Source: a virus
Taxonomy: Duplodnaviria > Heunggongvirae > Uroviricota > Caudoviricetes
Length of the DNA stretch: 50,883 nt
Reading direction: 5' to 3' (one strand)
IMG/VR virus record: IMGVR_UViG_2874962485_000005
The notes under the pieces were generated by a model. The model did no database searches. It was not told the origin of the DNA and saw nothing but the letters and a program-made list of their open reading frames with translations. Both the position numbers and the translations under genes were made by a program. Below are positions 3,371 through 3,440 of the stretch, one piece after another. Position 1 is the stretch's first letter, and the number at the start of each line of letters is the position of its first letter.

Positions 3371-3440
3371 CATTCAAACTCGCGCTATCGAACATCCATC
3401 AGCCAGCCGTGGCACGTTCTTGCATACGACGTGCTACGGT
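3371..3440. repeat. Copy A of a conserved ~70-bp element containing hairpin GGCACGT-N11-ACGTGC
   Basis: Aligns with 23548..23617 (CATTCAAxACTCGCxCTATCGAA...CAGCCAxCCGxGGCACGTTCxTGCATACGACGTGC). Confidence 0.6.

Follow-up and report, generated by a model that had tools for sequence, protein, structure and literature searches.

Why does the same hairpin-bearing sequence stand upstream of an ipaH gene and again beside sitD within one stretch of prophage DNA? The window, i.e., the whole stretch of DNA that was analysed, comprises 50,883 nucleotides of a Caudoviricetes record (IMG/VR IMGVR_UViG_2874962485_000005). A preliminary description of it reported a conserved element of ~70 bp in two copies, at 3371–3440 (copy A) and 23548–23617 (copy B), and considered it a relic marking cargo insertion, a recombination site or a small structured RNA. 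Both copies were found at these positions, and their alignment showed ~85% column identity with one small indel. They are related, as had been supposed; the substitutions between them, put at about 10, numbered 12–15 in the gapless register. A repeat search gave 79% identity over 71 nt for the gapless comparison of 3378–3448 with 23557–23627. The core GGCACGTTC[T/C]TGCATACGACGTGC occurred exactly twice in the window (3411–3434 and 23590–23613), with 0 occurrences expected from 100 shuffles.

The observation itself was confirmed, and its interpretation was partly supported. We propose that the element is probably the 3′ untranslated region (3′UTR) plus the Rho-independent terminator hairpin of a prophage gene of the dinI family, which has LexA-box-like motifs upstream. 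Such a module is very common, ordinary architecture of Escherichia coli and Shigella prophages and not a special signal for cargo insertion. Part of it is already known, as the hairpin is represented in Rfam as the end of CssrB; no description of the dinI 3′UTR-terminator module as such was found in the literature searched. The proposal would explain an unannotated conserved block of nearly all E. coli genomes, and its value lies mainly in annotation, as a terminator relic.

A conserved block behind prophage dinI

Alignment with copies from E. coli genomes and phages showed that the ~70 bp first noticed are the right-hand part of a longer unit. This conserved block of ~105 nt runs from GTAAAATC (3347 in copy A, 23525 in copy B) to just past the hairpin, and it contains two inverted repeats, H1 and H2. 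The features of the two copies are as follows:

3347–3454, plus strand: full block of copy A (alignments, the equivalent locus L021 free of insertion sequences (IS), repeat search)
3361–3404, plus strand: H1 of copy A, GGCTGAT (3361–3367) and ATCAGCC (3398–3404), from the RNA fold
3407–3439, plus strand: H2 of copy A, CCGTGGCACGT, 11-nt loop, ACGTGCTACGG
23525–23624, plus strand: full block of copy B (alignments; same arrangement elsewhere)
23588–23616, plus strand: H2 of copy B, GCGGCACGT, 11-nt loop, ACGTGCCGC

The general form of H1 is GGCTGG-N33-CCAGCC. Its loop in copy A is ~30 nt long and contains the conserved core CATTCAA.ACTCGCGCTATCGAA; the sequence of the conserved core upstream of H2 is GGAAAUCAUUCAAUACUCGCACUAUCG. 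H1 of copy B is degenerate, with two mismatches between GCCTAG and CCAGCC. The two copies do share a hairpin, as had been described, and its stem is longer than was given at that time: H2 has 11 bp in copy A (3407–3417 with 3429–3439, including one G·U on the + strand), 9 bp in copy B (23588–23596 with 23608–23616) and 9–14 bp across copies. The tail after H2 is TTTCCTTTACGATTT (3440–3454) in copy A and the weakly T-rich AGCTTCTGTTATT in copy B, and right of H2 the similarity between copies is lost after a few bases.

In many loci, an open reading frame (ORF) of 82 aa (MRIEICIAKEK...TWESADEWFVH) on the + strand ended just 5′ of the block. Its protein belonged to the DinI family (Pfam DinI PF06183, 70.9 bits), and the block stood directly after the stop codon in 73 of the 80 IMG/VR loci encoding this protein. 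Across the family, the block started within ~10 nt of the dinI stop codon and H2 started ~70 nt after it. The sequenced virion genome of mEp460 displayed the order integrase, promoter region, dinI, block, H2, TTTTTCTTTTTCGC and convergent tail fibre gene, with two CTG-N10-CAG motifs in the promoter region 5′ of dinI. In the Sakai prophage Sp15, the order was att, dinI (ECs_2939), block, ykgJ pseudogene and tail fibre genes, and the same motifs were found upstream of dinI; we take them to fit the LexA box consensus. Further variants carried the tail CTTTTTACTTTTTAT. Because the block follows the dinI stop codon and ends in H2, which is followed by TTTTTCTTTTTCGC in mEp460, it was read as the dinI 3′UTR plus a Rho-independent terminator on the + strand. 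The preliminary description had allowed that the element might simply be the 3′ end of a common phage gene. This is nearly true, except that what has been kept of the gene, dinI on the + strand, is untranslated and not coding sequence.

The chromosomal dinI of K-12 was rejected as the source, its 3′UTR being a short unrelated canonical terminator. Likewise, the block was absent after the diverged DinI genes of PhiR12_5, Klebsiella P18-100 and BP-4795 (60–71% identity), which have unrelated 3′UTRs. This indicated that the block belongs to one prophage dinI lineage. Within that lineage, locus L132 (= L032, 1517–1600) represented a natural deletion: its 3′UTR lacked ~40 nt of the block (H1's left arm with the greater part of the loop) and kept a hairpin followed by TTTTTCG.

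A search of genomes and prophages detected the block in many prophages and in nearly all complete E. coli genomes (5,395 of 5,426), at a median of 3 and a maximum of 9 places. At least 80% of dinI plus block was covered at one or more places in 1,407 of the 5,426. In genomes with a single place, the block lay between ecpE and ykgJ, 28 nt 5′ of the ykgJ start codon; a decayed dinI 3′ end (...EWFNHEL*) preceded this copy, with a match to positions 192–342 of the dinI-plus-block query. In the phage records of phiP27, Rac-SA53 and many Stx phages, it was located toward one end, 230–500 bp from att, and the IMG/VR scan yielded 92 loci. One genome per species was scanned with a strict 28-base pattern, where a looser one might reach other genera, and eight of the nine matches were in Escherichia/Shigella. 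The ninth, a 401-bp contig labelled Lysobacter, grouped with the E. coli ecpE-ykgJ copy and thus was probably contamination.

The arrangement dinI-block-ykgJ was observed both in the ecpE-ykgJ spacer (L001, 3950–4130; K-12, L007) and in Sp15 (L112, 2640–2760). It resembles a single prophage module, and ykgJ of K-12 has the look of a prophage gene that was domesticated or stranded. In the E. coli core genome, the spacer between ecpE and ykgJ would then hold a decayed dinI plus its 3′UTR, with ykgJ homologues directly behind dinI in prophages.

RNA structure and the strand of the hairpin

The structure was tested on alignment A3, which holds 28 distinct variants. In total, 94.9% of the cells paired in the proposed structure, compared with 27–51% for the slid-partner controls. 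Four pairs were changed on both sides, and none of 500 shuffles reached the observed covariation score. For H2 alone, 97% of the cells were paired and compensatory changes occurred at two pairs. Pair 78–104 of H2 was U-A, C-G or U-G, and pair 81–101 was C-G, U-A or U-G. In H1, the pair 32–67 was G-C in 19 variants and A-U in 8. RNAalifold recovered H1 and H2 unprompted. Stems of 10–14 bp at −15 to −26 kcal/mol were found in nearly all of 33 distinct H2 variants. Among further dinI-linked loci, H2 was more variable, with bulges and with one variant in which the inner stem and loop had been replaced; the outer stem CCGCAG/CTGCGG was kept across the dinI-linked variants. The earlier suggestion of a structured RNA held in this respect, as H2 behaves as an RNA-level structure with compensatory changes.

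The hairpin was biased to the + strand. On this strand, the wobbles of H2 in alignment A3 were 25 G·U vs. 3 A·C, and the 33 distinct hairpins contained 54 G·U when folded as the + strand and 10 when folded as the − strand. The + strand was the more stable one in 21 of these 33 (Wilcoxon p = 0.03). Since the sequences share descent, these counts do not represent independent events; nonetheless, the bias was seen at four different positions of H2. All U-rich tails, where present, were on the + strand. Canonical U-tracts are found in intact phages: a run of U lies 3′ of the stem in the mEp460-type TTTTTCTTTTTCGC and the CTTTTTACTTTTTAT variants; it is weak in copies A and B, and several variants lack it.

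If the block is the end of dinI, the module might work as follows. A dinI-family gene at the att-proximal end of many E. coli and Shigella prophages (lambdoid, Rac-like and phiP27-like) would be transcribed from the att side toward the tail-fibre genes, converging on the last gene of the tail-fibre strand. Its + strand RNA would fold into H1, a hairpin with a large loop, and H2, a G+C-rich hairpin of 10–14 bp, and H2 would end the (probably SOS-induced) dinI transcripts. It may also, in the circular phage, stop transcripts arriving from the integrase side, because the integrase of mEp460 is co-directional with dinI and directly upstream; dinI/integrase-side transcripts would be separated in this way from the convergent tail-fibre transcripts. 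Both copies in the window would have been orphaned by dinI deletion. Copy B, now behind sitABCD, is the first strong hairpin after sitD and may form the 3′ end of the sit operon, with a U-poor tail. Copy A lies at a prophage end by pphA, where ipaH would have replaced the ykgJ, pin or tail-fibre DNA found there elsewhere; placed between an IS1 (end 3232) and the ipaH upstream region, it would supply the terminal hairpin of CssrB. Actual termination at H2, and a residual function of the two orphan copies, are what we infer from the sequences.

Several observations weigh against this explanation. Many variants have no U-tract at all, e.g., CTTCCAACATTAG and CATAATCCC, and canonical intrinsic termination therefore cannot apply to every copy. 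Owing to its loop of 9–11 nt and its T-poor tail, H2 was not called by a simple terminator scan in either window copy or in Sp15. The sole transcripts on record at H2 are from the minus strand, namely CssrB and probably EcOnc47, a peak of Hfq in UV crosslinking and analysis of cDNA (CRAC). Among 30 dinI-plus-3′UTR haplotypes, a 28-nt core in the H1 loop, a segment picked post hoc, had 2/28 segregating sites vs. 25/82 at third codon positions (p = 0.012). The core is conserved like amino-acid-determining codon positions, for which a plain terminator is no explanation. Moreover, L132 lacks ~40 nt of the block, and the left part must be dispensable there at least.

Other readings of the block

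The conserved core leads to the possibility, which we regard as unlikely, that the block is or also encodes a trans-acting + strand small RNA (sRNA), processed from the dinI mRNA's 3′ end like DinR of Klebsiella or driven by a promoter of its own (TAAAAT), with H1 and H2 as its body and a seed in the H1 loop. A 3′UTR of ~105 nt is long for a bacterial gene, the segregating sites of the core are few, and two hairpins followed by a U-rich tail are reminiscent of the 3′ module that Hfq-binding sRNAs have. Conservation starts, whatever the flank type, at the TAAAAT hexamer, which in the copy-A type is preceded at 18 nt by TTGAAT; the left part was retained in the orphan copies despite the loss of dinI. 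Within the block, a sigma-70 promoter scan found nothing; one 9/12 match has its end at copy A's left edge. However, no + strand transcript has been recorded, and the left part is covered by no Rfam family: searches of both strands at permissive thresholds (copy B, mEp460, the ecpE-ykgJ copy and five loci) reported the CssrB hairpin, a sub-threshold IS009 outside the block and nothing else. The left 66 nt as a whole varied like third codon positions in the 30 haplotypes (p = 0.46), and the compared loci are close relatives, whose conservation may mean recent descent. Pairing of the block with the ftsZ translation start, of the kind made by DinR, was not special (−22.2 kcal/mol vs. −26.5 ± 4.0 for shuffles, 88% of which paired at least equally). 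In addition, H1 is broken in copy B, L132 is without the core, and the 3′UTRs of DinI genes of 60–70% identity are unrelated. A similarly doubtful idea is that the block is more than a terminator: it has 1–9 copies in almost every E. coli and Shigella, and orphans at sitABCD, the ecp operon and ipaH might still be expressed via read-through or from TAAAAT at the left edge. If the sRNA were real, E. coli and Shigella would have one more widespread prophage riboregulator, possibly with an SOS link. Known RNAs were also tried and rejected: the anti-sRNAs AgvB/AsxR differ in sequence and occupy the PR′ moron site, and EcsR2 is in the yagU-ykgJ spacer, not the ecpE-ykgJ spacer.

The partial IS009 match (L194, 3408–3450, minus strand, 36 bits) covered model positions 157–199 of 199 and was cut by the search window. 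It lay ~45 nt beyond H2 of mEp460, at the end of the tail fibre gene, and no IS009 match reached the gathering threshold.

On the minus strand, one Rfam family was matched at copy A:

3408–3590, minus strand: CssrB (Rfam RF02799), cmscan 151.6 bits against a gathering score of 76

This match overlapped the block only by its terminal ~33 nt (model positions ~145–180), which are H2; the rest was in the region upstream of ipaH. Copy B gave the terminal hairpin only (26.6 bits), and the ecpE-ykgJ copy 18.3 bits. The block as such was rejected as CssrB, as there was no full-length model match of at least 76 bits by the block and ~60 nt of it are outside the model. CssrB was detected in Shigella with a strand-specific probe as a northern band of ~180 nt; its 3′ end came from terminator prediction, and its 5′ end was computed from the band size (Peng et al., 2011, PMC3071730). 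The copy A hairpin is thus the predicted 3′ end of the minus-strand sRNA CssrB, and the terminal hairpin of the Rfam model would have been borrowed from the dinI module. EcOnc47 is an Hfq CRAC peak on the minus strand of Sakai, at 2896476–2896522 in older coordinates (Tree et al.). After a shift of +137 to +142, which was measured at the AsxR anchor (1.27 Mb) and assumed to be similar at 2.9 Mb, it falls approximately on H2 and the A-rich stretch before H2.

These signals, which show that the minus strand is transcribed at some loci at least, could mean that the primary function of H2 is on that strand, as the 3′ end or terminator of tail-fibre-side transcripts (pin, DUF4376, and CssrB at ipaH loci). 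H2 stands 8–12 nt after the stop codons of pin and DUF4376, the CssrB model ends at H2, the CssrB probe was strand-specific, and the corrected EcOnc47 is consistent with such transcripts. We nevertheless consider this quite improbable, since the hairpin is followed on that strand by GGCUGGCUG and not by U residues, the wobble positions turn into A·C mismatches, the U-tracts are on the + strand, and the 3′ end of CssrB was predicted, not mapped. A stable hairpin can also set 3′ ends by blocking exonucleases, with no selection for this role, which would be compatible with a dinI terminator. Far less probable still is a retroregulator of the lambda sib/tI kind, in which the block, downstream of int in the circular phage, would control int through processing of the hairpin. 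The position is analogous, beyond att and away from int in the prophage, the block is co-directional with int in mEp460 and L045, and in Stx phage 1717 and L045 the block is immediately preceded by a sequence that lambda also has in its b region, just past tI. However, the block has no similarity to lambda tI/sib and is absent from the 4.5 kb around att (lambda 25000–29500), and in most intact copies dinI with its own promoter stands between int/att and the block. Hardly credible, finally, are two earlier suggestions, a minus-strand coding 3′ end (...ARRMQERA..G*) and a site-specific recombination site for cargo insertion. The peptide motif is literally present, its frame is open for 15–20 codons in both window copies, and cargo genes are often adjacent. 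Against a conserved gene end, 94 of 99 distinct contexts left the frame open for under 60 codons, the peptides upstream were unrelated, the ecpE-ykgJ copy has TAA inside the ARRMQERA motif, and copies differ by 1-nt indels; the "ORF end" is a coincidental by-product of the hairpin sequence. A recombination site of the att or hix/gix type was rejected because the carriers have different integrases and different att sites (by pphA, uspF, yehU/yehV and, for phage 1717, the PBP6b gene), the element is some 230–500 bp away from att, and junctions occur at several points rather than at one crossover site. The element adjoins the 3′ end of pin rather than bordering an invertible segment, and we know of no resemblance to hix/gix sites.

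Prophage surroundings and known systems

The genes next to the two copies are:

3719–5434, plus strand: ipaH, LRR plus NEL E3 ligase (Pfam NEL, LRR_TTSS)
5614–6237, minus strand: DUF4376 tail-fibre-associated gene of prophage remnant A, the last gene on the tail-fibre strand
22567–23424, plus strand: sitD, last gene of sitABCD, cargo on the att side of copy B
23625–24248, minus strand: DUF4376 tail-fibre-associated gene of prophage remnant B, convergent with sitD, the element lying between them

The two DUF4376 genes shared 91% DNA identity, which indicated that the window holds two decayed prophage ends; it is also riddled with IS copies. Copy A has neither dinI nor another gene upstream and begins ~115 nt to the right of the IS1 end. 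It is indeed upstream of ipaH, its hairpin ending at 3439–3440, ~280 bp from the ATG at 3719, and ipaH is cargo in the slot between the element and the tail-fibre-associated gene. In uninterrupted relatives, the equivalent of copy A was ~200 bp from the prophage end adjoining pphA (L021). Copy B lies, as described before, between the sitD stop codon (23424) and that of the minus-strand DUF4376 gene (23625–23627): its block begins 100 nt and its H2 ~160 nt after sitD, and 8 nt separate the end of its hairpin from the convergent gene's stop codon. The same order, sitD-element-DUF4376, was found in E. coli CFSAN029787 and in 14 loci.

The IS1 beside copy A occupies 2465–3232, with identical copies starting at 18136 and 27361, and it splits att-proximal DNA that is continuous in L021. 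The pphA gene of the window (1751–2203) is truncated to 150 aa, compared with 219 aa in L021. Between pphA and copy A, AAAAAGAGACCGAACATGATTCCTGT was observed at 2335–2360 (+; ~1068–1093 in L021). It presumably is the reverse-complemented 3′ end of SdsR/RyeB, an sRNA, and would place this prophage end at the ryeA/ryeB insertion hot spot; Rfam reported no RyeB in the window. On the other side of copy A, GTATCGTTTTTTTACAG at 3583–3599 (+), ~120–135 bp upstream of the ipaH ATG, fits what we take to be the MxiE box consensus, GTATCGTTTTTTTANAG. As the CssrB match starts at 3590 on the opposite strand, the 5′ end of CssrB overlaps the ipaH promoter region.

The place of the block, with att on one side and the tail-fibre strand's last gene on the other, is where cargo collects. 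Its left-hand neighbours were dinI, bare att-proximal DNA (the copy-A type by pphA), sitABCD and, in L045, an integrase. Beyond H2 on the right came a pin-type invertase gene on the minus strand (stop codon 8 nt away), a DUF4376 gene (at 8 nt in copy B and at ~12 nt elsewhere), a + strand ykgJ-like CxxCxxCC gene, ipaH or acetyltransferase-like genes; in loci of the Stx phage 1717 type, a tail-fibre-gene relic was followed by further + strand ORFs. Each left type was met with several right types and vice versa, and L049 was a hybrid within the block. Because the right flank varies from phage to phage, the foot of H2 was regarded as a mosaic joint, and the shared ~100 bp probably acts passively as a homology patch within which recombinants exist. 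The supposed link to ipaH was not borne out, since the same left flank also occurs with pin, DUF4376, ykgJ or a tail-fibre relic on the right. What remains of the idea of a cargo mark is a relic in an att-proximal zone by tail-fibre genes where cargo is found, and not a special insertion signal. The block thus appears to mark the cargo-rich att-proximal prophage end, for which it may be a practical landmark (ipaH, sit, cdt and other cargo). In L015 (Escherichia sp. MOD1-EC7003, from ~1171–1290 on), cdtABC-like minus-strand ORFs were observed directly after the block, including a 273-aa ORF that by eye is CdtB-like.

Other features of the window were also recorded. Two pairs of isrK plus C4 antisense RNA, at 8012–8200 (+) and 39743–39944 (−), one with a c4 a1/b1 target element, suggest two regions for prophage immunity or antirepressor control, of the P1/P7 c4 type. 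From a sok antitoxin RNA (CssrC; 42891–43065, minus strand, 118 bits), a toxin-antitoxin locus of the hok/sok type can be deduced in a prophage remnant. A match to the catalytic domain of group II introns (29141–29227, minus strand, 64.9 bits) adjoins a 507-aa ORF (29231–30754, minus strand), presumably the intron-encoded protein. Four tRNA genes within 310 bp (37351–37658, minus strand) adjoin phage-like ORFs and are probably a prophage tRNA cluster, and an ALIL pseudoknot, a frameshift signal of the IS3 family, is located at 16819–16935.

Among known systems, CssrB shares sequence with the block: its terminal ~36 model positions (145–180) equal H2 on the minus strand, and copy A stands at the 3′ end of the full match. 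It differs in strand, which is opposite to that favoured by covariation. DinR of Klebsiella pneumoniae is the 3′ terminal part of a dinI transcript and ends in the terminator of the gene (PMC10907235), a likeness that holds for the block by position. In contrast, DinR comes from the chromosomal dinI and has a pairing region described as Klebsiella-specific, whereas the gene of the block is a prophage paralogue; the Klebsiella dinI was shown to be LexA-controlled (PMC10907235), whereas LexA-box-like motifs alone were seen for the prophage dinI. The dinI-antirepressor-irsA operon of Gifsy prophages likewise begins with a prophage dinI homologue preceded by LexA boxes, and its LexA control was demonstrated (PMC3121763). 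Equivalence with this operon was rejected: it lies downstream of replication genes and has a small antirepressor gene after dinI (PMC3121763), whereas the block has frameshifting indels and no coding sign.

Lambda tI/sib resembles the block in map position, just beyond att on the tail-gene side and facing transcripts from int/att. There is no sequence similarity between them, and the hairpin of the block belongs to a separate gene, dinI. Near this position, a hairpin stretch CACAAAGC...GCTTTGTG followed by a T-rich tail was observed in L045 (2403–2490), L003 (2010–2095) and lambda (L008, ~2465–2505, minus strand, b region beyond tI); it is between the integrase stop codon and the block in L045 and just left of the block in Stx phage 1717.

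Modular evolution in lambdoid phages, including morons, which is a general concept rather than a curated family, holds that conserved boundary sequences or terminators stand at the joints between modules. The block agrees with this concept as a short, conserved, terminator-bearing stretch with interchangeable modules or cargo at its flanks and with internal recombinants. It differs from such boundary sequences in having a definable origin, as the 3′UTR of a gene.

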